A program made the translations under genes and the position numbers. A stretch of DNA of 64,000 nucleotides from an uncultured Bacilli bacterium (lineage in GTDB: Bacteria; Bacillota_I; Bacilli_A; RF39; UBA660). The number at the start of each line of letters is the position of its first letter. Positions within the stretch are counted from its first letter, which is position 1. The notes beneath the pieces were generated by a model. That model was not told where the DNA came from, made no database searches, and was given only the letters and a program-made list of their open reading frames with translations. Shown here piece by piece: positions 36,323-58,887 of this stretch. The DNA is taken from assembly GCA_947631295.1 (NCBI GenBank), contig CANRKU010000002.1, positions 10,274 to 74,273 of the forward strand, in the 5' to 3' direction.

Positions 36323-36342
36323 GGAAATAGGAGAATGATAAA

Positions 36343-37527: not shown

Positions 37528-37535
37528 GAGTAATC

Positions 37536-40612: not shown

Positions 40613-40620
40613 TAACATAA

Positions 40621-40686
40621 TTCGACATATGTTGACATATCTTGTCAAGTTTCGCTGTATCAATTTGTAGGATATTATTGTATAAT
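40621..40686 (+). promoter_or_regulatory. spo0A promoter region with 0A-box-like sites and extended -10
   Basis: TTCGACA at 40621-40627, the reverse complement of the 0A box TGTCGAA. Inverted repeat TTGACA-tatct-TGTCAA at 40632-40648. Extended -10 TGTATAAT at 40679-40686. GAAAGGAG RBS before ATG 40718. Confidence 0.45.
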
Positions 40687-40717
40687 AATACTTGCGTGGA
40701 GTACGAAAGGAGATAAT

Positions 40718-41491
40718 ATGAAAAAAATCAAAGTACTTATGATCGATGATAACATCGAGTTAATAAGCATGATTAGGGAGTACTTTAATAATCACGCTAG
40801 TATTGAAGTAGTTTTAGAAGCAAGTGATGGAGAAGAAGGAATTAGATTAGCAAAAAATCATCAATCAGATTACGATGTAATAGTCTTAGATTTAATTATG
40901 CCTAAAAAGGATGGATTATCTGTTTTAGAAGAATTAAGAAAAGAAAACATTGATAAGAAGATTATTGTATTAACATCATATAATGCTCAAGATATGATTA
41001 GAAAGGTATCAGAATTAGGTGTAAATTACTTTATTCTAAAACCATTTGAATTAACAGATTTGGAAAAAAGAATAGAAGAATGTGGAGAAGAAAAAGATTA
41101 TTCAAATGCATCCATTGATATCTATCATAATAATCTACAAATTTCTATTACGAAAATTTTACATGAATTAGGAATTCCATCTCATATTAAAGGATATCAG
41201 TATATTCGGGAGGGTATTTCGATTTTATATGAAAAACCAGAAGTAATTGGTGGAATTACCAAAGAACTATATCCTGATATTGCTAGTAAATTTGATACTA
41301 CTGTATCTCGTGTTGAAAGAGCGATTCGTCATGCAATAGAAGTAAGCTGGAATCGCGGAGACTGGGATTTGATGGAAGAAATTTTTGGTCACAGTGTAGA
41401 TATTGATAAAGCAAAACCGACTAATTCAGAATTTATCGTAACAGTTGCTGATAAATTAAGATTAGAGTTCCAAAAGAATTATACAAAATAA
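40718..41491 (+). CDS. spo0A: stage 0 sporulation protein A (response regulator)
   Basis: Receiver domain (MIDDN, phospho-acceptor [10 protein letters not shown]). The Spo0A-specific C-terminal DNA-binding domain: [24 protein letters not shown]...[30 protein letters not shown]...KPTNSEFI. Confidence 0.92.
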
Positions 41492-41493
41492 TA

Positions 41494-41540
41494 AACATGG
41501 CATGGTAAAACATTTCCCAAATGCCATGTTTATTTTTTTA
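41494..41540 (+). terminator. rho-independent terminator of spo0A
   Basis: 10-bp stem aacatggcat / atgccatgtt followed by tattttttta, starting 3 nt after the spo0A stop. Confidence 0.75.
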
Positions 41541-41568
41541 AAGAAACATATGAAAAAAATTTCATTTA

Positions 41569-41597
41569 TTGACTTTTCAAAGAAAAAACAATATAAT
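41569..41597 (+). promoter_or_regulatory. sigma-A-type promoter (TTGACT - 17 bp - TATAAT)
   Basis: TTGACT at 41569-41574, a 17-bp spacer, TATAAT at 41592-41597; upstream of the ATPase gene. Confidence 0.6.
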
Positions 41598-41630
41598 TAA
41601 ATTATAAAATATGCGTGGGAGATACGATTT

Positions 41631-42905
41631 ATGGAACGAAAAATTTATAATGATTTACTAAAATGGAAAAAAGATGTTAGCAGAAAACCTTTATTAGTTT
41701 ATGGAAGCAAACAAATTGGGAAAACTTATACGATTGTTGAATTTGGAGAAAAAGAATATAAGACAGTTGCTTATATTAATAGTGATAATAATCAAGAATT
41801 ATTATCTATTTTAGAAAAAGAAAGAACGATAGATAAAATCATAGCAAAATTATCTCTTTTAGTAGGGGAAAATATTTTAAAAAATGATACATTAATTATT
41901 TTTGACAATGTTGTAAATGAAAGTATTGTGAAAGCTATTAAGAAATTTGGTAAAGAAGAAAATGAATACCATATTATTATGATTACTTCCTTAAAAGAAA
42001 AACTAACAGTTTTTAAAGGAGAAGAACTACAATATAAAAATATGTTTCCTATGGATTTTGAAGAATATTTAAGAGCAATTGGAAATATAGAATTAATTGA
42101 TTTTATTAAGAATTCTTATCGAACTAATAAAAGTATGCCATTTCATAACATAGCAATGGATTATTATGAAGAATATTTAATGACTGGTGGTCTTCCTGAA
42201 AGTATTGTTGCTAGTATCAATAAAGAAAGTGATTTAAAGATAAAAATCATTCATGAGAAACAATTAGATACTTATAAAAAAGAATTTCTAAATTTAGATA
42301 CCCTAATTGATATTATTCGTTGTAATGATGTAGTGAACATTCTACCTTATCAATTGTTAAAACCAAATAGAAAATTTCAATATGGCTTAATGAGAACTGG
42401 TGGAAGAAGTAAAGATTATGAAAAAGCTATTGATTTTTTATCCAATAACAACATTGTTTACAAATGTTATAAAATTAGTGAAGCAAATCCCCCACTTAGT
42501 AGATGCAAAGATTCTGAAAGCTTTAAATTATATTTAAATGATACTGGAATTTTATTTATGATGATGCACATATCTAAACTAAAGTTATTTAGCGATGATA
42601 ATTTAAAATATATTTTATACGAAAATAATTTAGCTAATACCATATTTTCTTGTGGTTATAACCTATACTATTATCAATCCGAAGGAAAAGCAGAAATACC
42701 TTTTATAGTTCAAACTAGAGCAGGTAAAATTATTCCTATTGAAATTGTAAATAAAAATTTATCTAAAGCCAAATCTTTATCATTATTTATGAGTAAATTT
42801 AATATTTCTGAAGCTATTCGTTTTACGGAAGATAATTTTAGTATAAAAAAAGGAGTGAAATATATTCCTATTTATGCTGCATTTTGTTTAAAAGAAAATT
42901 TATAA
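41631..42905 (+). CDS. AAA-superfamily ATPase with DUF4143-type C-terminal domain
   Basis: The N-terminus MERKIYNDLLKWKKDVSRKPLLVYGSKQIGKT (Walker A GSKQIGKT) and overall length fit the AAA_14/DUF4143 family; from memory. Confidence 0.6.
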   Translation: MERKIYNDLLKWKKDVSRKPLLVYGSKQIGKTYTIVEFGEKEYKTVAYINSDNNQELLSILEKERTIDKIIAKLSLLVGENILKNDTLIIFDNVVNESIVKAIKKFGKEENEYHIIMITSLKEKLTVFKGEELQYKNMFPMDFEEYLRAIGNIELIDFIKNSYRTNKSMPFHNIAMDYYEEYLMTGGLPESIVASINKESDLKIKIIHEKQLDTYKKEFLNLDTLIDIIRCNDVVNILPYQLLKPNRKFQYGLMRTGGRSKDYEKAIDFLSNNNIVYKCYKISEANPPLSRCKDSESFKLYLNDTGILFMMMHISKLKLFSDDNLKYILYENNLANTIFSCGYNLYYYQSEGKAEIPFIVQTRAGKIIPIEIVNKNLSKAKSLSLFMSKFNISEAIRFTEDNFSIKKGVKYIPIYAAFCLKENL

Positions 42906-42921
42906 AAGAAAAGGAGAAAGT

Positions 42922-44421
42922 ATGAAACCTATTATTTTATGTATTTTGGATGGATTTGGCCTAAGAGAAGAGATAAAAGGAAATGCAGTAAAATTAGCAA
43001 AAAAGCCTAATTTTGAATTTTTATGGAATCATTATCCACATTCTACTCTAAATGCTAGTGGAAAAGAAGTTGGATTACCAGAAGGACAAATGGGTAATAG
43101 TGAAGTAGGGCATATGAATATAGGTGCTGGAAGATTAGTATATCAGCCGCAAGAATTAATTAATGTAAGTATTGAAAATAAAGAAATTTTTCAGAATCAA
43201 GAAATCTTAAAAGTAATGAATCATGCTAAACAAAATCACTCTAAACTGCATATTATGGGATTAATTAGTGACGGAGGTGTACATTCACATATTAATCACT
43301 TAATGGCAATTCTAGAAATGTGCAAACAAAATCAAATAGAAAAACTATATCTACACCTTTTTGCCGATGGAAGAGATGTAGATCCGTGCAGCTGCTATCG
43401 ATATATAGAACAGGTAGAAAAAAAATTAAAAGAAATAAATGTTGGAAAGATAGCAACCCTTGGTGGAAGATATTATGGAATGGATCGAGACAATAATTAT
43501 GATCGATTACAAAAAGCATATGATGCAATGGTAAATAATATAGGTCCGAAACACCATTCTATCGAAGAATTTATAAAAGAAAGTTATGAGCAAAATATCA
43601 CAGATGAATTTTTAATTCCTACTATCTTTGAAGAAGAAGGAAAAATTGAAGAAAATGATGGAATCATTGTATATAATTACCGCAAAGATCGCTTAAGAGA
43701 AATATTAACAGCTCTTACAAATCCTAGTTTTCAGGATATGAAAGTAAAAAAATTTCAAAATTTAAAAGTAGTAACGATGTTACCAGTGGTAGAATCAGTA
43801 ATTGCTTCTCATGCCTTTGATGATCCGAAATTAACAAATATCTTAGGAGAATATGTAGCCAAAAAAGGATTAAAGCAATTGCGAATTGCTGAAACTGAGA
43901 AATATGCACATGTTACATTCTTTTTTGATGGTGGTAAAGAAGTAGATTACCCAAATGAAAAAAAGATATTAATTCCCTCGCCTAAAGTAGCCACTTATGA
44001 TTTAAAACCAGAAATGAGTATTGTAGAAGTTACAGATACTTTATTAAAAGAATTAACAGAAAATGAATATGATCTGGTTATTTTAAATTTTGCAAACTGT
44101 GATATGGTAGGACATACAGGTAATTTAGAGGCAGCTATCAAAGCAGTAGAAAAAGTGGATGAAAGCTTAGGTAAAATATATCATAAAGTAGAAGAGTTAA
44201 ATGGATTATTAATCGTAACTGCCGATCATGGAAATTGTGAATTAATGATAGATGAAAATAATCATATCATTACCTCACATACTACGAATAAAGTACCATT
44301 TATTATTTGTAACAACAATTATCAAGTAAGTGATGGCAAACTAGGGGATATCGCACCTACTATTTTGAAAATTTTACAATTGGAAATTCCAAAAGAAATG
44401 TCAGGAAAAATATTAATATAG
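42922..44421 (+). CDS. gpmI: 2,3-bisphosphoglycerate-independent phosphoglycerate mutase
   Basis: ILCILDGFGLRE N-terminus, catalytic-Ser region NSEVGHMNIGAGR, C-terminal ADHGN. Confidence 0.93.
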   Translation: MKPIILCILDGFGLREEIKGNAVKLAKKPNFEFLWNHYPHSTLNASGKEVGLPEGQMGNSEVGHMNIGAGRLVYQPQELINVSIENKEIFQNQEILKVMNHAKQNHSKLHIMGLISDGGVHSHINHLMAILEMCKQNQIEKLYLHLFADGRDVDPCSCYRYIEQVEKKLKEINVGKIATLGGRYYGMDRDNNYDRLQKAYDAMVNNIGPKHHSIEEFIKESYEQNITDEFLIPTIFEEEGKIEENDGIIVYNYRKDRLREILTALTNPSFQDMKVKKFQNLKVVTMLPVVESVIASHAFDDPKLTNILGEYVAKKGLKQLRIAETEKYAHVTFFFDGGKEVDYPNEKKILIPSPKVATYDLKPEMSIVEVTDTLLKELTENEYDLVILNFANCDMVGHTGNLEAAIKAVEKVDESLGKIYHKVEELNGLLIVTADHGNCELMIDENNHIITSHTTNKVPFIICNNNYQVSDGKLGDIAPTILKILQLEIPKEMSGKILI

Positions 44422-44437
44422 GATAGGATGTGTGTTT

Positions 44438-47400
44438 ATGAAAAAGAAAAAATCAAAGAAAAAGAAGATAAAAAAAATATCACAAACAACTCATAAAAAA
44501 ATAACACCAGCATTTGATCAAACTGAACAAGAAGAAAAAACCAGTAAAACAATAACAGAAACGCACAATCAAGATATAGTAGAAGAAAAGAAAAAAAAGA
44601 AAAAGAAGATTATTTTTCTATTACTTTTATTCCTATTAGTATTTTGCATATTTAGTATTAGTATCACATATGGAAATAGTATTTATGATGCTATTGAAGA
44701 ACAAGTAATAGAAGTATTAAATCTCAAAAAACCATCTGCTCCAGAAATAACTGGTGGTAGTGGAGAATGGGCTAAAGAAAGATTAATTAAAGTATCTAAA
44801 GATGCAACTACCAAAAATGGCTTAGATTATTACGAATATTGTATTAGTAATAGTAAAAATCTAAAAAATTGTAATTGGAAAAAAACGACAACTAAAAATA
44901 CTAAAGTAATGGAAACAGGAATTCATTATGTTGTTTTTAGAGGAGTAGATAAAGAAGGAAGAAAGGGATATCACTCTAATATAGAAATAGTATATATCGA
45001 CAATAATAATCCTATTATAGAAAATATTACTGTTGATAAGATTACAACGACAAGTATTGATATTAAAGTCAGTGCAAGAGACGAACATAGTGGTATTTAT
45101 AATTATTTTTATAGTTTAGATGGAATAAACTATGAAAAGGGAAATCCAAATTATACGTATCAAAATTTAGAAAAAGAAAAGGAATATACAATTTATGTTA
45201 AAGTAGACGACAAGGTTGGAAATACTACTTTTTTAAGTATGCAAGTAAAGACATTGCCAGAAGATGATAAAAATTCAACCCATGAATCAACAACCAGTCC
45301 AAATCCAACAACCAGTCCAAATCCAACGACTAGCCCAAATCCAACAACCAGTCCAAGTCCAACGACTAGCCCAAGTCCAACGACCAGTCCAAGTCCAACA
45401 ACTAGTCCAAATCCAACGACCAGTCCAAGTCCAACAACTAGTCCAAATCCAACAACCAGTCCAAGTCCAACGACTAGTCCAGATCCAACAACCAGTCCAA
45501 GCCCAACAACCAGTCCAAGCCCAACAACTAGCCCAAGTCCAACAACCAGTCCAAGTCCAACGACTAGCCCAAGTCCAACAACCAGTCCAGATCCAACGAC
45601 TAGCCCAGATCCAACGACTAGCCCAGATCCAGGAAAAGATGATGAGAAAGAGGAAGAAGATACTGAAATTCCAAAGATTAACTTAGATCAAGTACCATTA
45701 GAATTTCCATATGGAAGTAATTATGCTTTGCCAAGTTACTATCACTTTGGACCTAGTGGTGGTGAAGTACAATGTACTGTAGAAGGCGAAATATATACCG
45801 ATACTTCTACTTTAAAAGCAGGAACCCATGTTATTGAATGTATTGCTAAAGGAAATAATGGAATTAATGTTGGAGTATCCAAGAAAGTAAAAGTAACAGT
45901 GGAAGAAGGAATAGATGAAGCTTGGGATGGATGGATACGCTTAAATTTATATTATCCAGAAGATTCTACTAACTGGCAATGGAGAATAGGAAAAGAAGGC
46001 GAAATTCGTGACGGATATGATAATACTGGATGGCAAGACTATACAGGACCAATTTTAGTAAAACTAGAAGATGTTGATGATGTTTATATTCGATATGATT
46101 TAAATGGTGAAACTGTAATTATAGCCCCTAATGGTAAGACAGTAGTAGATATAGAACCTAATAAATATAGTTTGTTATCTGATGAAACAACAAAAGTAAC
46201 AATTATATATGATAAAGACGCAGAAGTAAAAGAATATAAGATAGGCTCTGGCGATTGGCAAGAATATACTAAACCATTTGTAGTAGGTAAAAATACATTA
46301 ATAGAAGCTAGAGTAAGCAAAAAAATAGATGTATATGATAGCGATGGTAATAGACTATATACAAAAACAGTAAGTGAGAGTGATAGCGTATTTATAGGAG
46401 AAATAGTAGAACATGGTAGTAGTAAAGGAACTATCAATGGTGGATCAGGATCTTTTGAATCGGAAACAGTTCCAAATGGAAATACTGTTACCAGACCTAG
46501 CTATGACGCAAGACCATCAGAATATTTATCAGGACCCAATATTAATATTAGTGCAGAACAGATTTCTGAAAATATAGCAGTAAATATTACTACGGAATAT
46601 GATGCAAGAGAAATTTACTACAAGATTGGAAATGGTTCTTATCAATTGTACACAGGAAGCTTTACTGTTACCAATAATACAACGATTAGTAGTTATTATA
46701 TTAGAGAAAGTGATGGTAGAATAAGTAGTACAAGCTATAGATATATTAATAATATATATAGAGGAGAAAAACCATATGTCAGAATTAATGCTATACCAGA
46801 TAATTACCTAACAGAGTCCTTAGATAGTGTAGAAGTAACAATTAGTGGAAGCAACTATGATCAATTAGAATATAGTCTAGATGGACATATTTATTATAAA
46901 TATATAAATCCAATTATCATCACAGATAGTACTACTGTATATGCAAAAGGAATAAATCAATATGGTGTTACCATAGAAAAATTATTAATTACTACTAAAA
47001 CACCAGCGATAAAAAAAGATAATTTAGATATTAGTATCTTATGTAATCCAGATAATTCAAAGGATTTGATAAATCATACTACAGTTACGATTATTTATGA
47101 CAATAGAGCTACTAAAAAATACTATAAATTAGGAAAAGATTCTGAATATCAAGAATATACTGGACCATTTGAAGTATATGAAAATACAACTGTATATGCT
47201 TATGCTATAGGAAAAAATTTAGAAGGAGAAACAAAACGAGGAATAGATTTTTTGACAACAGGAATTATGGAACCAATTATAAAAGTAACTCCTACTACAG
47301 CATCTAATACAGTAATGGTTAATATCGAATTTGATAAAAACGCAAATACAAAATATTATCAAATAAATGGTGGAGAAAGACTTTATTATACAGGACCATT

Positions 47401-50400
47401 TGAGATATATGAAAATAGTGAGATTTATGCCTATAATAGTAATGCTTTAAATTATGAAAAAGATAGTACTTATATGATTGATAATATTGTAGGTCTGCCT
47501 AATTATTTAATTATTGATAAAGGGAAATATTATATTATTAAATTAAATTATCCATCTATATCTAATATTGAAGATAGAGAATATAAATACGGCAAAAATG
47601 GTGTATGGAAAACTTATGATGAAAAGGGAATTTTATTAATTAAGTCAGAATATCAACAAGAATATATGACTGGAAAATATGATGGTATTGAAGTAGAAGA
47701 TAAAAATGGCAATAAAGTAATATTTACAGATCATTATTATGTAACTGATACTCCATTTGAAAAAATTATGGAAGACATTTATATGAGATGGAGTAATACT
47801 AAATTAAAGGCCCCAGAGATAGTAATAAATGAAGAAAACTACACAAAAGAAGTAGAAGTCGGAATTTTATATTCTAATCTATTAACCAAAAAATTATATA
47901 AAATTGTTAATGCAAATGGTTTAGATACAGGCTGGTTAGAATATACTGGACCATTTAAGGTAAATGAAAATAATACTGTAGTTTATGCCAAGGGAACTAC
48001 TCAAAGTGAGATTACTACTGAAACTTCATACCGAATTATCACCAATATTGATTCAATTAATCCTGAAATTACAGTACAGGGAGATTTTGAGACTCCAAAA
48101 CGTGAAGTAATTGTTACAGTCTCAGCAACCGATAATATGATGCTGAGAGAAGTTAAATGGGAAAAAGGGGATCAAAGCAAAGAATATTTTCTTAGAAATG
48201 GTAATAGTATAAAAAATCAAGGTACCTTTACTGTAACGGAAAATGGAAAATATACAATTTATGCAGTTGACCAAGCTGGAAATGAAAGTGTACAAGTTAT
48301 TGAAATTACCAATATTGATAAAGATGCACCGCATATTATCATTCATGTTTTAACAGAAAAGCTAGGAACTAAGGCAGAAATTAGTATTGATTACGGAGAT
48401 AGTGACATTAAGGAATTTAAAATTGGAGAAAATGGAACGTATCAACCATATACAGAAAATATTACATTAAGCTCATATGATGTATACCCATTGAAAAATG
48501 AAAACGGAAGTATCACACTATATGCAAAAGGAACAGATATTGCAGGAAATACAGCAGAAGTTAGTGAGGTTATTTACATATTAGACTTTGATTTTCCACA
48601 TAGCCCTATTATTTACCCAAGCAATGGTTATCCAGAATTAACAGAAAATGGAATGATACTAGGAACAGAGAGCTACATAGTATTTGATAATACCAGAGAT
48701 GATATTATGAATTATTATAAGATTGATAATGGAAACTGGACTTTATATACCAATCCAATTACCATTGTTAGTGGAAAAATAGAAGCTAAAAGCGTAAAAA
48801 TTGGTAGTGGTTTAACAGTAACTAGTACAGCAGAGGTAAGTATACCAAGTGATGCAGTAGCAGAAAATACATATGATAAAAATATGGAAACATTCGAAAC
48901 CATTCCTAAAAATACCAAAAAGAAATTTACTTTAGACAATAATTTAGAAAATAGAAAAATAAGATTTTACTTGAATAATGAGCCAAATATAAATTCCTAT
49001 ATTAAAGTCTATGCAAAAAATAATACAGAATTAGTAACGATACCTTTAACTGAAATAGTAACATTGCTTGATATACCAACTGATGGGTATATTGTAGAAA
49101 TATATTCTGGAGATAGTAACTTAGAAATAAAAGAAATTAATTTAAGAGATAGTAATCAAGATAGAAAAGTAAAGAATCCTATCATCACAGTTAATGATAA
49201 TAGTTGGACAACAGAAAAAGAAATAAGTATTATTTATCCAGAAGGATATACCAATCAGTATAGTACTGATAGTGGTGAGACATGGCAAACATATACGGAT
49301 TCATTTAAAGTATCAAAATTTACAACTATTATAGCTAGAGCATTAGAAGAAGAAAAAGTTGTATCTGCAAGTAGTATGCAAATTACTAAAATAGACACTG
49401 AATCTCTAAATATAAAATTAGATTTACCTAATATTATTCAAGTAGGGTATAGTATTGAATTACCAACTTCTTATTATTTGGGACCTTCCGGTGGAAAGAC
49501 AGAATGTATAGCTAATGACCAAGTTATTACGAATACCAATGAATTAGGTATAGGAGAATATCAAATTACATGTACTATAACAAGCAACATTGGACCTACC
49601 AAAAGTATAACTAAATCATTAAAAGTCATAGAGGTTCCTGATTATGGAGAAGAAAGTATTTTAAAAGCTTTATCTAGAGATGACATTGTTACTGGAAAAT
49701 ATAATTTAAAAATAGTAGATCAAAATTATCCAGTACATGTATACGTATATGATGGTAATCAACATTGGACAAGTGAAGATAATACGATATTTGGGGATGC
49801 ACAAGATGTGGCAACGGCGAATACTAATGCCCAGAATATGGTAATTGTGAAAGTAAATGGAGATTTGGAAATTGATGAAGGAGTAACAGTAAAACCATAT
49901 TCCACTGAATACGGAGGACCGAAAGGATTTACACTATATGTAACAGGAAAATTAACGAATAAAGGAACAATCGATAATTCCCATGGAGCAAAAGCACCAG
50001 GAGAGAATGTATACTTATGGAAAAATGCTGATGGAAGTTATGAAATGGTACCAGCAACAGGAGGCTCAGGAGCTAATCCCGGAGGAAGTATTGGAGCCGG
50101 AAATAACGGAGGATCAGGATCTAACCGTCAAACTGGAGGTGGAGGTTCAGGAGCTATTTCTGGTAAAGGCTCAGGAAGTGCAGGAACCAGCTATTCAGGA
50201 GGAACCGGTGGTGGTGGAAATGGCGGAACTGCCGGTACAGCGAATGGAGGAGCAGGAGGAATAGGATATGCACCAACCTACCCAGGTGGAGGCGGAGCCG
50301 GAAATCCAGGCGGGGCCGGAGCATCAAGCTCATCAAAAGGAAGTAATGGAACCGGAGGATTATTAGTAATTTATGCCAATGAATATGAAAATACAGGAAA

Positions 50401-52297
50401 TATAACTGCAAATGGATCCAATGGTGGAAGCCAACGAGTTGCAGGAGGATCTTCTGGTGGAGGAAGTATCAATATCTTTACCAATCAACCTACTGGAATT
50501 AATCAATTAGGAATTATTACGAGTACAAAATATCAAGAGATTAAAGGAAAAACATCTAATATAGGGGGAGCAAGATTATTATCTGGAACAAGTGCTGGAG
50601 GAGCAGGAGGAAATGGAACACTAAATATTGGAGAAATTAGAAATGGCCAGTATTATGATTTAACAGAAATAATTGAACAGGATAAAGTAACCTATAAAGA
50701 TAGTGTAACTTTAAAAGGAGATAGTATTTTATCTATACTAAGTAATCCAGAATTGAAACCAGGATATTGGTACTTAAGTATAACTGGATTAGAAGAAAAT
50801 ATTGAATATCCAACTCATGTATATGTATATGATGGTAATCAACATTGGACAAGTGAAGATAATACGATATTTGGAGATGCACAAGATGTAGCAACAGCAA
50901 ATACCAATGCCCAAAATATGGTAATTGTAAAAGTAAATGGAGATTTGGAAATTGATGAAGGAGTAACAGTAAAACCATATTCCACTGAATACGGAGGACC
51001 GAAAGGATTTACACTATATGTAACAGGAAAATTAACGAATAAAGGAACAATCGATAATTCCCATGGAGCAAAAGCACCAGGAGAGAATGTATACTTATGG
51101 AAAAATGCTGATGGAAGTTATGAAATGGTACCAGCAACAGGAGGCTCAGGAGCTAATCCCGGAGGAAGTATTGGAGCCGGAAATAACGGAGGATCAGGAT
51201 CTAACCGTCAAACTGGAGGTGGAGGTTCAGGAGCTATTTCTGGTAAAGGCTCAGGAAGTGCAGGAACCAGCTATTCAGGAGGAACCGGTGGTGGTGGAAA
51301 TGGCGGAACTGCCGGTACAGCGAATGGAGGAGCAGGAGGAATAGGATATGCACCAACCTACCCAGGTGGAGGCGGAGCCGGAAATCCAGGCGGGGCCGGA
51401 GCATCAAGCTCATCAAAAGGAAGTAATGGAACCGGAGGATTATTAGTAATTTATGCCAATGAATATGAAAATACAGGAAATATAACTGCAAATGGATCCA
51501 ATGGTGGAAGTCAATGGGTTGCAGGAGGATCTTCTGGTGGAGGAAGCATTAATATCTTTACCTACGAATCTGTTAATAGTCAGGGTAGTGTTAAAGCAAA
51601 TGGTGGTTCAAGATTAAAAAGTGGAACAGATGCTGGAGGAGCAGGAGGAAATGGAACCATTACATTTAGACAAATTGAACTTCATTCTCAAGTCGATAAT
51701 AACCAAAATAATCTTTCAAATTCTATGAATTCTGTACCTAAAATCACAATTTCTGATTATAATTGGTCTAGTAAGAAGATAGTAAATATTACTTATCCTC
51801 AAGAACAATATATCAATGAATATAGTTTGGATTTAGGCACTACTTGGCTTCTATATAGTGATTCCATTACTGTATCAGAAGCAACAACAATTTTTGCAAG
51901 AAGCTTAAAAGATGGTAAAATAGTATCAAGCAGTAGTTTTCAAATCACCAAGATTGATTCTACCGAACCTACTATTGAACTTGATATTCCAGATAAAATA
52001 TTAAAAGGTAGCGATTATCAATTACCTACTAATTATTGGGTAGATAATACAAAATCTGGCGGAAGCGCTGTATGCAAAATCAATGATAGTGTAATCAATA
52101 ACACTAGTAGCTTAGATATTGGTAGCTATGAAATTATTTGCACAGTTACTACAGGAGTAGGTAAAGATAAAATTATTACCAAAAGTATAGAAATATATCA
52201 GGAAGAAGATATTCTTCCTCCTGATAATTCTACAAATATTCAAGGAAATCCATCTCAAACGGAAAATAATGCGAGTGAATTAAGCGGAGGTGACTAA
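44438..52297 (+). CDS. giant (2619-aa) N-terminally membrane-anchored surface protein with TSP-repeat stalk, multiple Ig-like (CHB_HEX_C-like) domains and duplicated Gly-rich module
   Basis: The track starts at GTG 44432; the likely start is ATG 44438 (AGGATG RBS). Lys-rich N-terminus then a signal-anchor helix IIFLLLLFLLVFCIFSISI. 19 TTSP(N/S/D)P repeats. About ten ~80-aa repeats of the pattern YYK(I/L)G.G..Q.YTGPF.V. Two near-identical Gly-rich modules. No LPXTG. Confidence 0.8.
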   Translation: MKKKKSKKKKIKKISQTTHKKITPAFDQTEQEEKTSKTITETHNQDIVEEKKKKKKKIIFLLLLFLLVFCIFSISITYGNSIYDAIEEQVIEVLNLKKPSAPEITGGSGEWAKERLIKVSKDATTKNGLDYYEYCISNSKNLKNCNWKKTTTKNTKVMETGIHYVVFRGVDKEGRKGYHSNIEIVYIDNNNPIIENITVDKITTTSIDIKVSARDEHSGIYNYFYSLDGINYEKGNPNYTYQNLEKEKEYTIYVKVDDKVGNTTFLSMQVKTLPEDDKNSTHESTTSPNPTTSPNPTTSPNPTTSPSPTTSPSPTTSPSPTTSPNPTTSPSPTTSPNPTTSPSPTTSPDPTTSPSPTTSPSPTTSPSPTTSPSPTTSPSPTTSPDPTTSPDPTTSPDPGKDDEKEEEDTEIPKINLDQVPLEFPYGSNYALPSYYHFGPSGGEVQCTVEGEIYTDTSTLKAGTHVIECIAKGNNGINVGVSKKVKVTVEEGIDEAWDGWIRLNLYYPEDSTNWQWRIGKEGEIRDGYDNTGWQDYTGPILVKLEDVDDVYIRYDLNGETVIIAPNGKTVVDIEPNKYSLLSDETTKVTIIYDKDAEVKEYKIGSGDWQEYTKPFVVGKNTLIEARVSKKIDVYDSDGNRLYTKTVSESDSVFIGEIVEHGSSKGTINGGSGSFESETVPNGNTVTRPSYDARPSEYLSGPNINISAEQISENIAVNITTEYDAREIYYKIGNGSYQLYTGSFTVTNNTTISSYYIRESDGRISSTSYRYINNIYRGEKPYVRINAIPDNYLTESLDSVEVTISGSNYDQLEYSLDGHIYYKYINPIIITDSTTVYAKGINQYGVTIEKLLITTKTPAIKKDNLDISILCNPDNSKDLINHTTVTIIYDNRATKKYYKLGKDSEYQEYTGPFEVYENTTVYAYAIGKNLEGETKRGIDFLTTGIMEPIIKVTPTTASNTVMVNIEFDKNANTKYYQINGGERLYYTGPFEIYENSEIYAYNSNALNYEKDSTYMIDNIVGLPNYLIIDKGKYYIIKLNYPSISNIEDREYKYGKNGVWKTYDEKGILLIKSEYQQEYMTGKYDGIEVEDKNGNKVIFTDHYYVTDTPFEKIMEDIYMRWSNTKLKAPEIVINEENYTKEVEVGILYSNLLTKKLYKIVNANGLDTGWLEYTGPFKVNENNTVVYAKGTTQSEITTETSYRIITNIDSINPEITVQGDFETPKREVIVTVSATDNMMLREVKWEKGDQSKEYFLRNGNSIKNQGTFTVTENGKYTIYAVDQAGNESVQVIEITNIDKDAPHIIIHVLTEKLGTKAEISIDYGDSDIKEFKIGENGTYQPYTENITLSSYDVYPLKNENGSITLYAKGTDIAGNTAEVSEVIYILDFDFPHSPIIYPSNGYPELTENGMILGTESYIVFDNTRDDIMNYYKIDNGNWTLYTNPITIVSGKIEAKSVKIGSGLTVTSTAEVSIPSDAVAENTYDKNMETFETIPKNTKKKFTLDNNLENRKIRFYLNNEPNINSYIKVYAKNNTELVTIPLTEIVTLLDIPTDGYIVEIYSGDSNLEIKEINLRDSNQDRKVKNPIITVNDNSWTTEKEISIIYPEGYTNQYSTDSGETWQTYTDSFKVSKFTTIIARALEEEKVVSASSMQITKIDTESLNIKLDLPNIIQVGYSIELPTSYYLGPSGGKTECIANDQVITNTNELGIGEYQITCTITSNIGPTKSITKSLKVIEVPDYGEESILKALSRDDIVTGKYNLKIVDQNYPVHVYVYDGNQHWTSEDNTIFGDAQDVATANTNAQNMVIVKVNGDLEIDEGVTVKPYSTEYGGPKGFTLYVTGKLTNKGTIDNSHGAKAPGENVYLWKNADGSYEMVPATGGSGANPGGSIGAGNNGGSGSNRQTGGGGSGAISGKGSGSAGTSYSGGTGGGGNGGTAGTANGGAGGIGYAPTYPGGGGAGNPGGAGASSSSKGSNGTGGLLVIYANEYENTGNITANGSNGGSQRVAGGSSGGGSINIFTNQPTGINQLGIITSTKYQEIKGKTSNIGGARLLSGTSAGGAGGNGTLNIGEIRNGQYYDLTEIIEQDKVTYKDSVTLKGDSILSILSNPELKPGYWYLSITGLEENIEYPTHVYVYDGNQHWTSEDNTIFGDAQDVATANTNAQNMVIVKVNGDLEIDEGVTVKPYSTEYGGPKGFTLYVTGKLTNKGTIDNSHGAKAPGENVYLWKNADGSYEMVPATGGSGANPGGSIGAGNNGGSGSNRQTGGGGSGAISGKGSGSAGTSYSGGTGGGGNGGTAGTANGGAGGIGYAPTYPGGGGAGNPGGAGASSSSKGSNGTGGLLVIYANEYENTGNITANGSNGGSQWVAGGSSGGGSINIFTYESVNSQGSVKANGGSRLKSGTDAGGAGGNGTITFRQIELHSQVDNNQNNLSNSMNSVPKITISDYNWSSKKIVNITYPQEQYINEYSLDLGTTWLLYSDSITVSEATTIFARSLKDGKIVSSSSFQITKIDSTEPTIELDIPDKILKGSDYQLPTNYWVDNTKSGGSAVCKINDSVINNTSSLDIGSYEIICTVTTGVGKDKIITKSIEIYQEEDILPPDNSTNIQGNPSQTENNASELSGGD
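45290..45631 (+). repeat. 19 tandem 18-bp repeats encoding TTSP(N/S/D)P
   Basis: Read directly in the DNA (acaaccagtccaaatcca and variants). It also produces a spurious alternative-frame ORF (45264..45686). Confidence 0.9.
49728..50483 (+). repeat. copy 1 of near-identical 756-bp intragenic tandem duplication (period 1080 bp)
   Basis: 49741-50483 matches 50821-51563 with only a handful of mismatches in the first ~130 bp, then apparently identical sequence for ~600 bp. Confidence 0.9.
50808..51563 (+). repeat. copy 2 of near-identical 756-bp intragenic tandem duplication
   Basis: See copy 1. Both copies are in frame (1080 = 360 codons) and encode HVYVYDGNQHW...GGSGANPGG...GGLLVIYANEYENTGNITANGSNGG. 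Confidence 0.9.
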
Positions 52298-52299
52298 AA

Positions 52300-52704
52300 A
52301 TGGATAAAAAAATAAAAGTGTGGTTTCAAAAATATAAATTACCAAGTATAATGATTGGATGCCTTATGTTAATTGGAATCATTACTGTTATTGGAATTAG
52401 TGTAGCAAAGCCTAGTGATGGTGATTTTCCTAATCAAGTAGTTGAAGGGCTATCTTTTGAAAATGCTAATTTAAAAACAGAAGATGGTATTACAACTTTT
52501 ACAGCGGAAATAGTAAATGAAAGTGGAAATATTATAACCTTAAAAACAATTAATATTAACATTAAAAATGCATCTGATGAAATAATTACACTAATTGGCT
52601 ATGTAGGCGAACAATTAGAAACAAATGAGTCCAAATTAATAACAGCTAGTATTGATAAAGAAATAACGGATGCATCTCAAGTAGAGTATACAATTAATCA
52701 TTAA
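52300..52704 (+). CDS. small membrane-anchored hypothetical protein
   Basis: Starts 3 nt after the giant gene stop. N-terminal TM IMIGCLMLIGIITVIGISV. 134 aa. Confidence 0.45.
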   Translation: MDKKIKVWFQKYKLPSIMIGCLMLIGIITVIGISVAKPSDGDFPNQVVEGLSFENANLKTEDGITTFTAEIVNESGNIITLKTININIKNASDEIITLIGYVGEQLETNESKLITASIDKEITDASQVEYTINH

Positions 52705-52824
52705 TGATATGATATTTGCTAGCAAGATATGAATTTTTAAAATCATAATAAATAAACTATATAGAGACTAAAGTTTGAATGAACCACTTGGAGTAGACAT
52801 TCAAAAAAGGTCTATTATAAGATA

Positions 52825-52853
52825 GAAAACTAAATTTTGGTTTTCTTTTTTTT
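52825..52853 (+). terminator. rho-independent terminator
   Basis: Stem gaaaac / gttttc with a 9-nt loop, followed by tttttttt. Confidence 0.5.
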
Positions 52854-52886
52854 ACACAAATTTCTATAAAAATTATTAAAAAAATA

Positions 52887-52916
52887 CTTGCTTTTTTGAT
52901 AAAACCTATGCTATAC
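52887..52916 (+). promoter_or_regulatory. S10 operon promoter (TTGCTT - 18 bp - TGcTATACT)
   Basis: TTGCTT at 52887-52892, TG at 52908-52909, TATACT at 52911-52916, followed by a ~130-nt leader before rpsJ. Confidence 0.5.
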
Positions 52917-53048
52917 TTTTAACTGTGTGGCTGCTTAGATGTGTGAGGTTGCTGATACGCCAGGATAAGTTGTTAAAATTTATTTAGGTAATTCAGGTTT
53001 TTACACGGAGCAAGTCTATACTAGATATAGGCGAAGGGAGGATTCGAA

Positions 53049-53366
53049 ATGTCAAAAGAAAAAGTTCGCATAAGATTAAAAGCATATGATCATAGAATTC
53101 TAGACAATGCTGCAAAGAAAATAGTAGAAACAGTTAAAAGATCTGGAGGAGAAATCAGTGGACCAGTACCACTTCCAACAGAAATTGAGAAATTCACTAT
53201 TTTAAGAGCTGTTCATAAATATAAAGACAGCCGTGAACAATTTGAAATGCGTACGCATAAAAGACTTATTGATGTCAAGAACCCAAGCAAGGAAACTATT
53301 GATGCATTAGCACATTTAGATTTACCAAGCGGTGTTGATATTCAAATCAAAGTAGAACAAAATTAA
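53049..53366 (+). CDS. rpsJ: 30S ribosomal protein S10
   Basis: The central portion, [44 protein letters not shown], is canonical S10. Confidence 0.95.
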
Positions 53367-53382
53367 TTAGGAGGAAACAAAA

Positions 53383-54177
53383 ATGAAAGGAATCTTAGGG
53401 AAAAAGATAGGAATGACTCAAGTTTTCACTCAAAGTGGAAAATTAATTCCTGTTACAGTCATTGAAATCGAACCAAATGTTGTTACTCAAATCAAAACAA
53501 CAGAAAAAGATGGATATGATGCAATCCAATTAGGATGCGAAACAGTAAGACCAAAAGTAAGTAATAAAGCTAAAGTTGGTCATACAAACAAAGCAAATAC
53601 AGAACCTAAGCGCTTCTTAAGAGAAATCAGGGGAGTAAACGTAAACGATTATACATTAGGTCAAGTAATCGATGCTAGTATCTTTACAAAAGGAGAAATC
53701 GTTGATGTAAGTGGTGTTAGTAAAGGTAAAGGTTTCCAAGGTGTAATCAAACGTTATAACCAATCTCGTGGACCTATGGGACACGGTTCTCAATATCATA
53801 GAGGTGTTGGTTCATTAGGTACAATGTTACCAATGCACGTATTAAAAGGAAAAAAATTACCAGGTCATATGGGTAATGTTGCATGTACAATTCAAAATCT
53901 TGAAGTTGTAGATGTTGATTTAGAAAATAACGTTATCTTAGTAAAAGGTAATGTACCAGGTCCTAAAAAATCTTTAGTTATGATTAAAACATCAGTTAAA
54001 AAAGGTGAAAAAGTAAATGATACAGAAGAATTAATTTCTTATGTAGAAGTTGAAGCACCTGTTGATACTGTAGAAGAAAATACTGAAGTTGAAGTTAACG
54101 AAGAAGTTAATGATTCAGAACCAGAAACAGTAGAAACAGAAGTAACTGAAGAAAATCAAGAAGAAGTAAACGAATAA
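53383..54177 (+). CDS. rplC: 50S ribosomal protein L3 (with ~50-aa acidic C-terminal extension)
   Basis: [16 protein letters not shown]...; the tail [50 protein letters not shown] lies beyond the usual L3 end. Confidence 0.93.
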
Positions 54178-54228
54178 TCACTGCATATAAATAAAAATTT
54201 AAAATTGTAGTGAAAGGAGGAATTAAAG

Positions 54229-54825
54229 ATGGAAAAACTAAAGGACGTTAAATTAAATAAAGAATTACTTAGTATAGAACCAAATGAAAAAGTTTTATAT
54301 GATGCTATCATTTTACAAAGAGCATCTTTAAGACAAGGAACTCACTCAACAAAAAATCGTAGTGAAGTTAGCGGTGGTGGAAGAAAACCATGGCGTCAAA
54401 AAGGAACAGGACATGCTCGTCAAGGATCTATCCGTGCAGTACAATGGGTAGGTGGAGGAAGATATGGTACTCCAGTTCCAAGAGATTACTCAAAGAAACA
54501 AAATCGTAAAGAAAGAAGATTAGCTTTACAAACAGCATTCTTAAGTATTTATAACAACAAACAATTAGTAGTAGTGGATTCTTTAAGTTTAGCTACACCA
54601 AAAACAAAAGAAATGATTACTATGCTAAATACATTAGAATTAGCTGATAAGAAAGTATTAATCGTAGTAAATGAATTAGACGAAAATCTAATCCTTGCAT
54701 CTCGTAACTTAAGAAATATAGCATTATTAGAACCAACAGAATTAAATGTACTTGATTTAAGTTATGCAGATTATGTATTAACTACAAAAGAAGGATTAGC
54801 AAGTATTGAGGAGGTGCTTAAATAA
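54229..54825 (+). CDS. rplD: 50S ribosomal protein L4
   Basis: GGGRKPWRQKGTGHARQGS motif. Confidence 0.93.
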   Translation: MEKLKDVKLNKELLSIEPNEKVLYDAIILQRASLRQGTHSTKNRSEVSGGGRKPWRQKGTGHARQGSIRAVQWVGGGRYGTPVPRDYSKKQNRKERRLALQTAFLSIYNNKQLVVVDSLSLATPKTKEMITMLNTLELADKKVLIVVNELDENLILASRNLRNIALLEPTELNVLDLSYADYVLTTKEGLASIEEVLK

Positions 54826-55109
54826 TGGATACAAAGTATTTAGAAATAATAAAAGCGCCAGTAGTTACTGAAAAATCAGCAACTTTAGGACAAGAAAGAG
54901 GACAATATGTTTTCAAAGTTGATCCTAGAGCTAATAAAATAGAAATTAAACAAGCAATTGAAAAAATATTTAATGTAAAAGTACAAGAAATTCGTACTTT
55001 AAACGTTAAACCAAAGAAAAGAAGAGTTGGACGTTACGCTGGACTTACAAATCGCACTAAGAAAGCTATTGTAACACTAGCTGAAGGTCAAACAATTGAA
55101 CTTAATTAA
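54825..55109 (+). CDS. rplW: 50S ribosomal protein L23
   Basis: [33 protein letters not shown] pattern. Confidence 0.92.
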
Positions 55110-55123
55110 AAGGAGGGTTACTC

Positions 55124-55954
55124 ATGTCAGTAAGAAACTATAAGCCTAATACTCCAGGTCAAAGAAAAAAGAGTACTTTAGTAAATACCGAAATTACGAA
55201 AACTACTCCTGAAAAAAGCCTAGTAGTAAGCTTAAAGAAAAACGGTGGTCGTAACAATCAAGGAAGAATTACCGTAAGACATCAAGGTGGCGGAGCAAAA
55301 AGAAAATATCGTATAATTGACTTTAAAAGAAATAAATTCGATATTCCAGGTAAAGTTGCTAGTATTGAATACGATCCAAATAGAACTGCAAATATTGCAT
55401 TAATTAATTATAACGATGGTGAAAAGAGATATATCATCGCTCCAAAAAAACTTAGTGTAGGAGATGTTATTGTATCTGGTGAAAACGTAGATATCAAAAT
55501 AGGAAATGCACTTCCTATTATGAATATCCCAGTTGGTACTATGATTCATAATATCGAACTTCGTCCAGGAAAAGGTGGAGAATTAGCACGTAGCGCAGGA
55601 GCAAGTGCTCAAATCCTTGGACGTGAAGGAAACTATGTAATGGTTAGACTTTCAAGTGGTGAACAAAGATTAATTTTAGGAACTTGTTATGCTACTATTG
55701 GTGAAGTTGGAAACGAAGATCAAAATCTAGTAAGATTAGGAAAAGCTGGACGTACTCGTCATTTAGGAATTCGTCCAACCGTTCGTGGATCTGTTATGAA
55801 CCCTAATGATCACCCACATGGTGGTGGTGAAGGACGTGCACCAATCGGTCGTAAAGGACCTGTTACTCCTTGGGGTAAACCAGCACTTGGATATAAGACA
55901 AGAAAGAAAAAAGCGTCTGATAAATTTATCGTACGTCGTCGTAATAGTAAGTAA
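55124..55954 (+). CDS. rplB: 50S ribosomal protein L2
   Basis: [14 protein letters not shown] and WGKPA motifs. Confidence 0.95.
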
Positions 55955-55968
55955 GGGAGGAGATTATT

Positions 55969-56238
55969 ATGGCAAGAAGTTCAAAGAAAAAACCTTATGT
56001 ATTTGAAAGATTACTAGCTAAGGTTGAAAAATTAAACGAAACTGGAAAAAAAGAAGTCATTAAAACATGGTCACGCCGTTCAACAATCTACCCTGCATTT
56101 ATTGGACATACATTTGCAGTACATAATGGAAAAGAATTTATTCCAGTATATGTTACTGAAGATATGGTAGGACACAAACTTGGAGAATTTTCACAAACTC
56201 GTAAGTTTGGTGGACATGGCGACAATAAGAAGAAATAG
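55969..56238 (+). CDS. rpsS: 30S ribosomal protein S19
   Basis: [35 protein letters not shown]. Confidence 0.95.
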
Positions 56239-56257
56239 TGACTAGGAGGAGAAAAAT

Positions 56258-56590
56258 ATGGAAGCAAGAGCAATCGCAAAGACTCTTAGAGTATCACCTA
56301 TTAAAGCTCGTTTAGTAGTAGATTTAATTCGTGGAAAAAATGTAAATATTGCATTAGATATTTTAAACAATATGAATAAAAAGCCTGCTCGTCTTACAAA
56401 AAAAGTTCTTGAATCTGCTATTGCTAACGCTGTTAACAATAACGGTGCTAAACAAGAAGAGTTATTTGTAAAAGAAGCAAGAGTAGATGCTGGTCCAGTG
56501 ATGAAAAGACATATGTTTGACTCACGTAGTCACATTGGACATAACGATAAAAGAACAAGTCACATCGTAATCGTTGTGGCAACTAAGTAA
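56258..56590 (+). CDS. rplV: 50S ribosomal protein L22
   Basis: [27 protein letters not shown]. Confidence 0.93.
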
Positions 56591-56610
56591 GCAAAGGAGG
56601 GTCAAGAAAA

Positions 56611-57264
56611 ATGGGACAAAAGGTAAATCCTAATGGACTAAGACTTGGAATTAATAAAGATTGGGACTCAAAATGGTATGCAAATAAAAAAGACTTTTCT
56701 AAATACTTAATGAATGATGTTAAAATTCGTGAATATTTTGAAAAAGGTCAAAAAACAAATGGTATCAGCAAAGTTCAAATCGAAAGAAATTCTAAAAGAA
56801 CAGAAGTAATTGTTCATACATCTAAACCTGGTGTAATCATCGGACGTGGTGGAGAACAAATCGAAGCTATGAAAAAAGATTTATCTAAGTTAGTAAACGA
56901 AGATATTCAAATTTCTATTGTAGATATTAAAAAACCTGATTTAAGTGCACAAATCGTTGCAGATTCTATTGCATCTCAAATCGAAAATCGTGCATCTTTC
57001 AGAATGGCTCAAAAAAGAGCAATCCGTAATGCTATGAAGGCAGGAGCTCAAGGTATTAAAACATTAGTATCTGGACGTTTAGGTGGAGCAGATATGGCTC
57101 GTAGCGAAGGATATACAGAAGGAACAATTCCTCTACATACTTTAAGAGCAGATGTTGATTATGCAGTTAGTGAAGCAGATACAACATTTGGTAAAATTGG
57201 AGTTAAAGTATGGATTTATAAAGGAGAAATCCTTCCTTCTAAAAAGACTAAAGGAGGTAATTAA
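56611..57264 (+). CDS. rpsC: 30S ribosomal protein S3
   Basis: [14 protein letters not shown] and the KH-domain segment GVIIGRGG. Confidence 0.95.
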
Positions 57265-57266
57265 TT

Positions 57267-57698
57267 ATGTTAATCCCATCAAGAACAAAATATCGTCGTG
57301 TTCATAGATTACCTTACGAAGGTCATGCAAAAGGAAACAAAACCTTAGATAAAGGTGAATATGGACTTATGGCTAAAGAAGGTGCTTGGATTACATCAAA
57401 TCAAATCGAAGCAGCTCGTGTAGCTATGACACGTTATATGAAGCGTGGTGGAAAGGTATGGATTAATATTTTCCCACATATGCCTATCACAAAGAAACCT
57501 ATTGGTACTCGTCAAGGAAAAGGTAAAGGTAACGTTGAAGCTTGGGTAGCAGTAGTAAAAGAAGGAAAAATTATGTTTGAAATTGCTGGTGTAGATGAAG
57601 CAACTGCTCGTGAGGCATTAAGACTTGCTTCTCATAAACTACCAATTCAAACAAAATTTGTAAAAAAGGAAAATGGTGGTGAGATAAATGAAGGTTAA
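57267..57698 (+). CDS. rplP: 50S ribosomal protein L16
   Basis: [14 protein letters not shown]...RQGKGKG. Confidence 0.95.
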
Positions 57699-57891
57699 AG
57701 AAATTAGAGAACTAACCACTGAACAAATCGTTGCTAAAATTAAAGAAAGCAAAGAAGAATTATTCAACCTACGTTTTCAACAAGCAACTGGAAATTTAGA
57801 AAAACCTTCAAGAATTAGAGAGTTAAGACACGATGTAGCAAGATGTAAAACGGTACTTCGTGAGCGTGAATTAGCTGGGGAGGTTAAATAA
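57688..57891 (+). CDS. rpmC: 50S ribosomal protein L29
   Basis: [31 protein letters not shown]. Confidence 0.92.
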
Positions 57892-57893
57892 AG

Positions 57894-58151
57894 ATGGAAA
57901 AAGTAAAAAAAGAATTGGTTGGTACAGTAGTTAGTGCTTGTAACAACAAAACAATTACTGTTAAAGTAGAAACTTATAAAAAACATCCAAAATATGGAAA
58001 AAGAGTTAGATCATCAAAGAAATATGCAGTTCATGATGAAACAAACAAAGCAAAAGTAGGAGATACTGTTAGAATTGTTGAATGCAAACCAATTTCTAAA
58101 ACAAAACACTTCTATTTAGCTGAAATCGTAAAAGAAGCAGTTATTCTATAA
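57894..58151 (+). CDS. rpsQ: 30S ribosomal protein S17
   Basis: [22 protein letters not shown]...YAVHDE. Confidence 0.92.
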
Positions 58152-58177
58152 CTCTTAGGTGAAGGAGGAAATAATTT

Positions 58178-58546
58178 ATGTTACAACAAGAAAGCCGTTT
58201 AAAAGTTGCTGATAACTCAGGTGCAAAAGAATTACTAGTAATTCGTGTACTTGGTGGAAGCAAAGTAAAAACTGGTAATATCGGTGACATAGTTGTTGGT
58301 ACCATCAAAGATGCCACACCTAATGGAACGGTAAAAAAAGGAAAAGTTGTGAAAGCAGTTATCGTAAGAAGTAAACAAGGACTTCGTCGCGATGATGGAA
58401 GTTACATTAAATTTGAAGACAACGCTTGCGTAATTATAAGAGATGATAAGAGTCCAGTTGGAACTCGTATCTTCGGACCAGTAGCACGTGAATTACGTGA
58501 CAAAGATTTCATGAAAATAGTATCTTTAGCTAAAGAAGTGCTATAA
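58178..58546 (+). CDS. rplN: 50S ribosomal protein L14
   Basis: [24 protein letters not shown]. Confidence 0.95.
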
Positions 58547-58557
58547 AGGAGGATATT

Positions 58558-58869
58558 ATGAAACTTAAAGTTGGAGACAAAGTAGTCGTAATAGCCGGAT
58601 CTAGTAAAGGAAAAGAAGGAAAGATTATTAAAACCTTAAGAAATGAAAATAAAGTCATCGTAGAAGGTGTTAATATCGTTAAAAAACATAGAAAAGGAAA
58701 TGGCCAAGAAACTGGTGGAATCCTTGAAGTAGAAGCACCAATTCATGCTTCCAACGTAATGTTAATCGACCCTAAGACAAAAAAAAGAACTAGAATCGGT
58801 TACACTATTGATGAAAAATCAAATAAAAAAATTAGAATTTCAAAAAAATCAAGTGAAAAGATTGATTAA
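58558..58869 (+). CDS. rplX: 50S ribosomal protein L24
   Basis: [23 protein letters not shown] (KOW motif). Confidence 0.93.
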
Positions 58870-58887
58870 TTGGAAGGAGGGTAATAT

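Follow-up and report, generated by a model that had tools for sequence, protein, structure and literature searches.

Probable gene conversion between the cores of two tandem modules in a giant gene of an uncultured Bacilli bacterium

Introduction

Paralogous repeats are well known to evolve in concert through gene conversion; examples are rRNA operons, tuf genes and surface antigens that contain repeats. Here we analyze a locus at which the same process has probably acted within a single gene. It lies in a stretch of 64,000 nucleotides (nt) of DNA from an uncultured Bacilli bacterium (GenBank assembly GCA_947631295.1, contig CANRKU010000002.1), the whole of which we term the window. A giant gene in this window encodes two tandem copies, B1 and B2, of a protein module that we call the B module, and the cores of the two copies are almost identical in DNA sequence.

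Among the closest described systems are the Periscope Proteins, surface proteins with repeats that are variable in length, such as Sgo_0707 (SHIRT), SasG, Rib and CdrA. High DNA identity between adjacent domains has been proposed to enable intragenic recombination in these proteins, with gain and loss of repeats, and counting the repeats needs long reads (Whelan et al. 2021, PMC8201768). The present locus may be similar to these, in that a large bacterial protein, predicted from its sequence to lie at the surface, has two adjacent modules, predicted to be folded, with very high DNA identity. The repeat had been noticed in an earlier reading of the sequence (the original prediction), where it was described as a near-identical tandem duplication with a period of 1080 bp and ascribed to recent gene conversion or duplication.

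Results

The near-identical tract

Each B module comprises a head, a core and a tail, making ~340 amino acids (aa) in all; B1 occupies positions 49652-50686 of the window and B2 positions 50720-51679. Comparison of the giant protein with itself, by BLAST of 100-aa fragments, shows that the modules are flanked by two related domain pairs, X and X', so that the order in the C-terminal third is X (aa 1559-1744), B1 (1741-2085), B2 (2097-2416) and X' (2405-2595). The features are as follows.

44432..52297, + strand: giant gene, 2621 aa from the GTG at 44432, from the list of open reading frames (ORFs) and the translation
49106..49663, + strand: domain pair X, aa 1559-1744, preceding B1, located by fragment BLAST
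49652..49735, + strand: head of B1, aa 1741-1768
49736..50482, + strand: core of B1 (copy 1), aa 1769-2017
49850..50430, + strand: exact repeat, copy 1, 581 nt
50483..50686, + strand: long tail of B1, aa 2018-2085, NQPTGINQLGIIT...NIGEIRNGQYYDLTEIIEQDK, including a helix into the next module
50720..50815, + strand: head of B2, aa 2097-2128
50816..51562, + strand: core of B2 (copy 2), aa 2129-2377
50930..51510, + strand: exact repeat, copy 2, 581 nt
51563..51679, + strand: short tail of B2, aa 2378-2416, YESVNSQGSVKANGG...GTITFRQIE, of the terminal-module tail type
51644..52216, + strand: domain pair X', aa 2405-2595, following B2, located by fragment BLAST

When 49736-50482 and 50816-51562 are codon-aligned there are 13 differences in 747 nt (734/747 = 98.26% identity). 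The offset is exactly 1080 nt, i.e. 360 codons, in frame within ORF 44432..52297, and the encoded sequences are identical at 248 of 249 aa (99.6%). In 30-nt windows compared at an offset of 1080 nt the identity rises from ~25-35% to 83-100% between ~49730 and ~50490, and then drops back. A repeat search aligned 49727-50026 with 50807-51106 at 96% and a spacing of 1080 nt, and BLAST of a same-strain contig matched 50807-51562 to copy 1 over 756 nt at 97.9%. The last of these is the 756 bp that the original prediction had given as the size of the repeat, and its in-frame offset of 1080 bp is confirmed.

The differences are confined to the two edges of the tract, with eight at 49744-49849 and five at 50431-50470, so that a run of 581 nt is exactly identical. 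A few early substitutions followed by ~600 bp of identity had been noted before; to this can now be added the five differences at the 3′ edge. In 1,000,000 trials with the 13 differences placed uniformly, no run of at least 581 nt arose (P < 1e-6). The numbers of substitutions per synonymous site (dS) and per non-synonymous site (dN) reflect the same division of the tract.

5′ edge, first 114 nt of the tract: 8 differences, all synonymous; dS 0.48, dN 0
Centre, 579 nt with 149 synonymous sites: 0 differences; dS 0, dN 0
3′ edge, last 54 nt of the tract: 5 differences; dS 0.31, dN 0.04

Of the 13 differences, 12 fall at third codon positions, and the edges are identical in protein save for one R/W codon. 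The identical ORFs in other frames that had been listed within the repeat are present (49983..50264 = 51063..51344 on the + strand, and 50154..50411 = 51234..51491 on the - strand); we read these as by-products of a coding frame rich in GGN glycine codons.

On this sequence evidence we consider it likely that the near-identical tract is the core of two anciently duplicated modules, homogenized by intragenic gene conversion.

The repeat in independent assemblies

The proteins of gpmI, S10 and the ORF downstream of the giant gene are found exactly in other assemblies, and this leads to further contigs of the same strain. Those found are all 99.99-100% identical to the window, which alone spans both copies. 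Three are informative about the limits of the exact repeat, expressed relative to the single-nucleotide polymorphisms (SNPs) that distinguish the copies.

L012 (ERZ27249196): window 32922-50984, 100% over 18,063 nt; ends 55 nt past the last 5′ SNP of copy 2 (50929)
L005 (ERZ27249400): window 51456-60605, 99.99%; starts 55 nt before the first 3′ SNP (51511)
L011 (Logan contig): begins at 51481, so that 30 nt precede 51511, in accord with k = 31

Thus three independent assemblies of the strain have the same exact repeat and the same bounding SNPs, and none of them crosses it. Orthologous giant genes occur on two metagenome scaffolds, L004 (ERZ28616105) and L003 (ERZ28659049), both of which have gaps of 100 N within the repeat. 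The cores of L004 match at 100% over 722 nt, and its contigs overlap by 54 nt across the 100-N gap.

Might the assembly itself have created the pattern? In such an account both modules are real, but the exact identity of the centre, the copy number of two, or both, would come from the short-read graph, and the true locus could hold small differences between the cores, one module, or at least three. Several observations point this way. The same-strain contigs end at 50984, 51456 and 51481, each k bases (55 or 31) away from the closest SNP that tells the copies apart, from which it follows that the assemblers cannot cross the repeat; the warning in the original prediction about short-read assemblies was therefore well founded. 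The gaps in L003 and L004 fall in the repeat, the exact 722 nt and the 54-nt overlap of L004 are typical of a reused graph edge, and the one-module relative P0256 is possibly a collapsed form of the two-module P0255. Yet an assembler is unable to make diverged sequences identical, and variants of equal coverage would branch the graph. The junctions are carried by independent contigs: with R denoting the repeat, and A, B and C the segments before, between and after its copies, L012 contains A-R-B and the start of a second R at 100%, while L005 and L011 contain the end of R joined to C. All four junction types (A-R, R-B, B-R and R-C) thus recur in other samples, and a pure artefact of assembly, in the sense of a spurious duplication, is not supported. 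Moreover, resolved copies in P0133, P0134, P0136 and P0137 are also alike, with cores 74-96% identical within each protein, although not exactly so. We regard an assembly effect as an unlikely explanation, and one that would alter details rather than the conclusion of concerted evolution. On the available contigs we take it that the repeat is real in the sequenced populations, and that a copy number of two is the minimal path through the graph.

Diverged heads and tails around a near-identical core

Outside the cores, which are of 249 aa in each module, B1 and B2 are dissimilar. The heads (~28-32 aa) are 31% identical with an indel of 4 aa; the tails (~39-68 aa) are 28% identical with an indel of 14 aa, and are of different types. 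In each unit of 1080 nt, 747 nt (69%) are near-identical and ~330 nt strongly diverged. The original prediction had described the remainder of the unit as diverged but related. This is so, since 50564-50638 and 51602-51676 are 77% identical, but at an offset of 1038 rather than 1080 because of the 14-aa indel between the tails. With heads and tails at ~30%, X and X' at 41-50% and the cores at 248/249, the duplicated region is old overall and the core alone is young.

The tails can be traced in other organisms. The tails of P0001, P0002 and P0005 share 61-67% identity with tail 1 but only 27-39% with tail 2, and tail 1 is closer to the first-module tails of other species (43-74%) than to tail 2 of its own protein. 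In the orthologous genes of L004 and L003 the order is again X-B1 (long tail)-B2 (short tail)-X'. B1 and B2 of L004 have the same core, yet it is only ~70% identical to the core of the window; in L003 the B1 core falls inside the scaffold gap, and the ends flanking the gap match B2. The limits of identity, YP(V)H at the start and SINIF at the end, are common to the window, L004 and L003.

We extended the comparison to 11 two-module proteins.

Core: within proteins, median 93% (60-100); between proteins, 60% (50-70) for any pairing of modules
Tail: within proteins, median 31%; between proteins, 54% for first modules and 25% for first against second

The second-module tails are 33% identical between proteins, too diverged to show grouping by position. 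Thus the cores group by genome and the first-module tails by position, and this indicates concerted evolution rather than recent duplication of the whole unit. In addition, ten or more cluster representatives contain exact intra-protein repeats of 146-361 aa.

A recent tandem duplication of the 1080-nt unit, followed by ordinary divergence without gene conversion, would explain the exact in-frame offset and the very high identity across 747 nt. It leaves unexplained why the heads, tails and linker, which make up one third of the unit, are ~30% identical and have indels, why tails 1 and 2 are different subtypes that are each found in other species, why X and X' have diverged to 41-50%, and why the orthologues keep the two-type layout when their cores differ by 30-40%; uniform divergence is also rejected by the permutation test. 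Contradicted by the diverged heads and tails and by the clustering of the differences, such a duplication is very improbable and we reject it. Of the two processes in the original prediction, conversion therefore stands, given a dS of 0 in the centre, 0.3-0.5 at the edges and identities of ~30% in the heads and tails, and duplication of the whole 1080 bp falls. That purifying selection alone has maintained identity between two independently evolving cores is hardly credible, for although dN ~0 with dS 0.3-0.5 at the edges signifies strong selection on the protein sequence, such selection cannot erase synonymous differences, the centre has 0 at 149 synonymous sites (a dS of 0 on which this account is rejected), and the core is only 50-70% conserved between species and so not tightly fixed.

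Module number and a proposed mechanism

When 1.84 billion cluster representatives were searched with HMMER, 839 matched at E <= 0.001, and tandem copies were then counted with a hidden Markov model (HMM) of the B module. Most proteins of ~550-600 aa have one module and most giant proteins have two; P0123, P0124 and P0126 have three and P0121 has four. In P0124 the tail of module 1 equals that of module 2, and the head of module 2 equals that of module 3, both at 100%. This arrangement, A-R-B-R-B-R-C, is the product expected from unequal crossing-over between homogenized cores, judged from the sequence. A cluster of P0128 at >=90% identity has five members of 2413 aa and one of 2063 aa, shorter by exactly one period of 350 aa. 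Contigs L015 (P0256, one module) and L016 (P0255, two modules), obtained from different samples and free of Ns, are 98-99.9% identical apart from exactly 1050 nt, one period, that L015 lacks, with the junction inside the repeat. This could be real recombination or collapse during assembly, the same alternative that the original prediction had raised. Variation of module number between strains of the window's own species, which the original prediction had thought likely, is suggested by analogy only. An HMM scan of the 64-kb window in six frames found no third B module, and therefore no further donor for conversion within it.

The mechanism by recombination, like the exposure of the protein at the surface, is what we infer from these sequences. 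We suggest that the cores of B1 and B2 have been repeatedly overwritten by non-reciprocal homologous recombination between copies 1080 nt apart. The latest event would have homogenized the 581 nt exactly, and older or wider events would have left the flanking 114 nt and 52 nt alike in protein but unlike at synonymous sites. Loss of homology at the YP(V)H...SINIF boundaries would set the ends of the conversion tracts. The identity of the cores would in turn provide a substrate for unequal crossing-over, the likely source of relatives with one to four modules.

A number of points weigh against this reading or limit its precision. All 13 differences are transitions, and at six of the eight in the 5′ edge copy 1 has G where copy 2 has A, a pattern that a simple model of nested tracts does not predict; the 5′ edge of copy 1 uses G-ending codons, atypical for a genome of 27% GC. 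The pattern might stem from nested conversion tracts or from the import of a diverged allele. None of the 13 differences is more than 114 nt away from unique sequence, which is also the distance across which variants can be phased with short reads, and a de Bruijn-graph assembler could have sharpened the identity of the central 581 nt by using one graph edge twice. The exact identity in L004 probably arose in this way, and exact identity in gapped scaffold records should be read as 'very high'. Lastly, the representatives of the large library were clustered at 50% identity, which by construction caps the identity between proteins (60% for the cores).

Predicted fold and distribution of the B module

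An AlphaFold2 model of B1, based on an alignment of 52 sequences, has a predicted local distance difference test (pLDDT) score of 95.9 and a predicted template modelling (pTM) score of 0.94. It has β-strands at both ends, and a stretch of ~100 residues, 44% of them glycine, that has no regular secondary structure by DSSP. The tandem model of B1 and B2 (pLDDT 92.4, pTM 0.77) has a helix in tail 1, residues 337-351 of the model, that leads into module 2. The B module is predicted to have an adhesin-like β-helix part and a glycine-rich stretch. The module has no match in Pfam (even at E <= 10), NCBIfam or PHROG, and no significant one in a sequence search of the PDB. Foldseek found nothing significant in the PDB, the top matches being phage gp38 tips at E >= 0.65 with TM-scores of ~0.14. 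In BFVD, Foldseek matched only glycine-rich and collagen-like viral proteins; these matches had low TM-scores of ~0.3, and were set aside as driven by composition.

Many single-module relatives begin with a prepilin-type N-terminal motif (MKKGFTLIELLAV; PF07963) followed by Big_2, and others carry PF12389; the module also occurs in giant proteins of up to 7394 aa. The genes of the prepilin-type relatives P0036 and P0006 lie among housekeeping genes outside pilus operons, so that the link to pili is drawn from the N-terminal motif only. Near the giant gene of L004, ~7 kb downstream, there is a gene for a T2SSE-family ATPase (type IV pilus / type II secretion; 18142-19704), and none was noticed around the giant gene of the window. 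A further glycine-rich domain follows the B modules in P0084, P0132, P0133, P0137, P0142, P0162 and P0175; that of P0084 has a precomputed match to PF12810, and the other six were judged by eye ('...WGAQGG...GGYNGGG...GGGAT...'). The giant protein of the window has no such extra domain.

The predicted adhesin-like β-helix fold and the occurrence of the module at the C-terminal end of prepilin-type proteins together suggest that it is displayed at the surface and is probably adhesive. We would tentatively go further, as a possibility raised by the models. The B module may be an undescribed adhesin-tip domain, formed by a β-helix and an ordered glycine-rich lattice of ~100 residues, possibly of polyglycine-II type, that uncultured low-GC Firmicutes display on prepilin-type, TasA/camelysin-like and giant anchored proteins. 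Selection and recombination might then keep the ligand-binding cores alike, giving a multivalent adhesin in which the heads and tails serve as connectors. If so, the conserved conversion boundaries would be functional rather than incidental.

The giant protein and its genomic context

The giant gene appears to encode a multi-domain surface protein anchored at its N-terminus. The ORF list takes its start as GTG, and ATG 44438 is the start chosen by gene calls on the same-strain contig L012. Two features lie in its N-terminal part.

44609..44674, + strand: single N-terminal hydrophobic segment, aa 60-81, IIFLLLLFLLVFCIFSISITYG, after a lysine-rich stretch; read from the translation
45288..45615, + strand: tandem array of an 18-nt unit found by Tandem Repeats Finder, 18.2 copies with 84% matches, encoding a TTSP(S/N/D)P linker

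The first of these is a predicted membrane anchor, and the giant homologues carry an equivalent segment. There is an OmpL47-type domain at aa 210-266 (E 8.5e-27), a match to CHB_HEX_C, and many CHB_HEX_C-like immunoglobulin (Ig)-type domains along the protein. Two same-strain Logan contigs, L013 and L014, both terminate within the 18-nt array, at 45364; this array could be a second site in the gene for length variation or mis-assembly. An exact look-up of the giant protein returned no record. A search of 5.8 billion proteins, from which the window's own protein is absent, gave no match that exceeded 62% identity across most of the module, and a scan of genome contigs with the giant protein gave no orthologue, only two irrelevant matches of low identity.

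The source of the window is a low-GC (27%) Firmicute, and the closest named relatives in the B-module protein family are metagenome-assembled genomes labelled "Bacilli bacterium" or "Firmicutes bacterium". The GC content is 24-33% across the 64 kb except in the bin at 50-52 kb, which is rich in glycine codons and reaches ~40%. The gene order is gap, pgk, an MprF-like gene, a glycosyltransferase gene, tpi, spo0A, a DUF4143 ATPase gene, gpmI, the giant gene and an ORF of 134 aa, 3′ to which are an S10 leader (Rfam RF03136, 52928-53034) and the S10/spc ribosomal operon. The glycolytic cluster gap-pgk-tpi-gpmI is otherwise typical, with the MprF-like (LPG_synthase_TM) gene and a group-1 glycosyltransferase gene at 37536-39802 between pgk and tpi, and spo0A and the DUF4143 ATPase gene between tpi and gpmI. 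A small ORF is also found directly 3′ of the giant genes of other lineages (133 aa in L003, 141 aa in L004 and 136 aa in L015/L016).

52300..52704, + strand: ORF of 134 aa, starting 3 nt past the stop of the giant gene, with one N-terminal hydrophobic segment
Counterparts, matched by position and size only: L003 2844-3245; L004 11203-11628; L015 7692-8102

The 134-aa ORF has no match in Pfam, NCBIfam or PHROG; a role for its product as partner of the giant protein is possible. Elsewhere in the window there is a further repeat-bearing gene, ORF 9309..12755 (1148 aa), with a tandem array of 69/138 nt at 9390-10251 (12.4 and 6.2 copies, 76-81% matches). Its product resembles a surface protein of the leucine-rich-repeat type.

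Discussion

The mechanism proposed here is a known one, and what the locus adds is an uncharacterized family of modules and breakage of assemblies that is precise to the base. Short reads are unable to resolve the locus; the number of modules given for it in metagenome-assembled genomes is not trustworthy without long reads, and the breakpoints can be predicted to the base. The locus provides a clean bacterial case of partial-module concerted evolution, with relatives that look like products of unequal crossing-over, and fits the idea that surface proteins shift in length and valency by means of near-identical DNA repeats. The family is large and frequent in uncultured Firmicutes, with a confidently predicted fold and no curated model, and so offers a target for structural and binding studies.

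How does the module compare with known folds? The model resembles right-handed β-helix adhesins (the secretion domains of HMW1, EtpA and FHA, the autotransporters UpaB and Ag43, and pertactin), and may also be likened to ice-binding proteins, the tapirins of Caldicellulosiruptor and the pilin ComZ. In the comparison with these adhesins, the tapirins and ComZ, fewer than half of its 345 residues superpose. Unlike the β-helix adhesins, the module lies outside their Pfam and NCBIfam families, and its ~100-residue stretch with 44% glycine is without counterpart there. In that stretch, confidently modelled yet devoid of regular DSSP structure, it is similar to the polyglycine-II adhesin tips of gp38 and the Gly_rich group PF12810, and in some relatives the B modules are followed by a distinct PF12810 domain. 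The module itself has no match to PF12810, however, and its structural matches to gp38 are non-significant.

In a comparison with the Periscope Proteins, the relatives of the giant protein differ in module number, from one to four, across relatives and not strains. The giant protein is unlike the Periscope Proteins in having just two modules, and in that 69% of the unit is homogenized while the heads and tails are specific to position. Its repeated unit, modelled as a β-helix of ~340 aa with a glycine-rich stretch, would be more akin to a binding domain than to a small stalk domain that forms a rod. With concerted evolution in other systems it shares paralogues that are closer within a genome than are the orthologues, and a mosaic of identity with sharp boundaries and clustered differences. 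It departs from the typical case in that the boundaries of the tract are conserved across species, and coincide with the boundaries of sub-domains inside one module.

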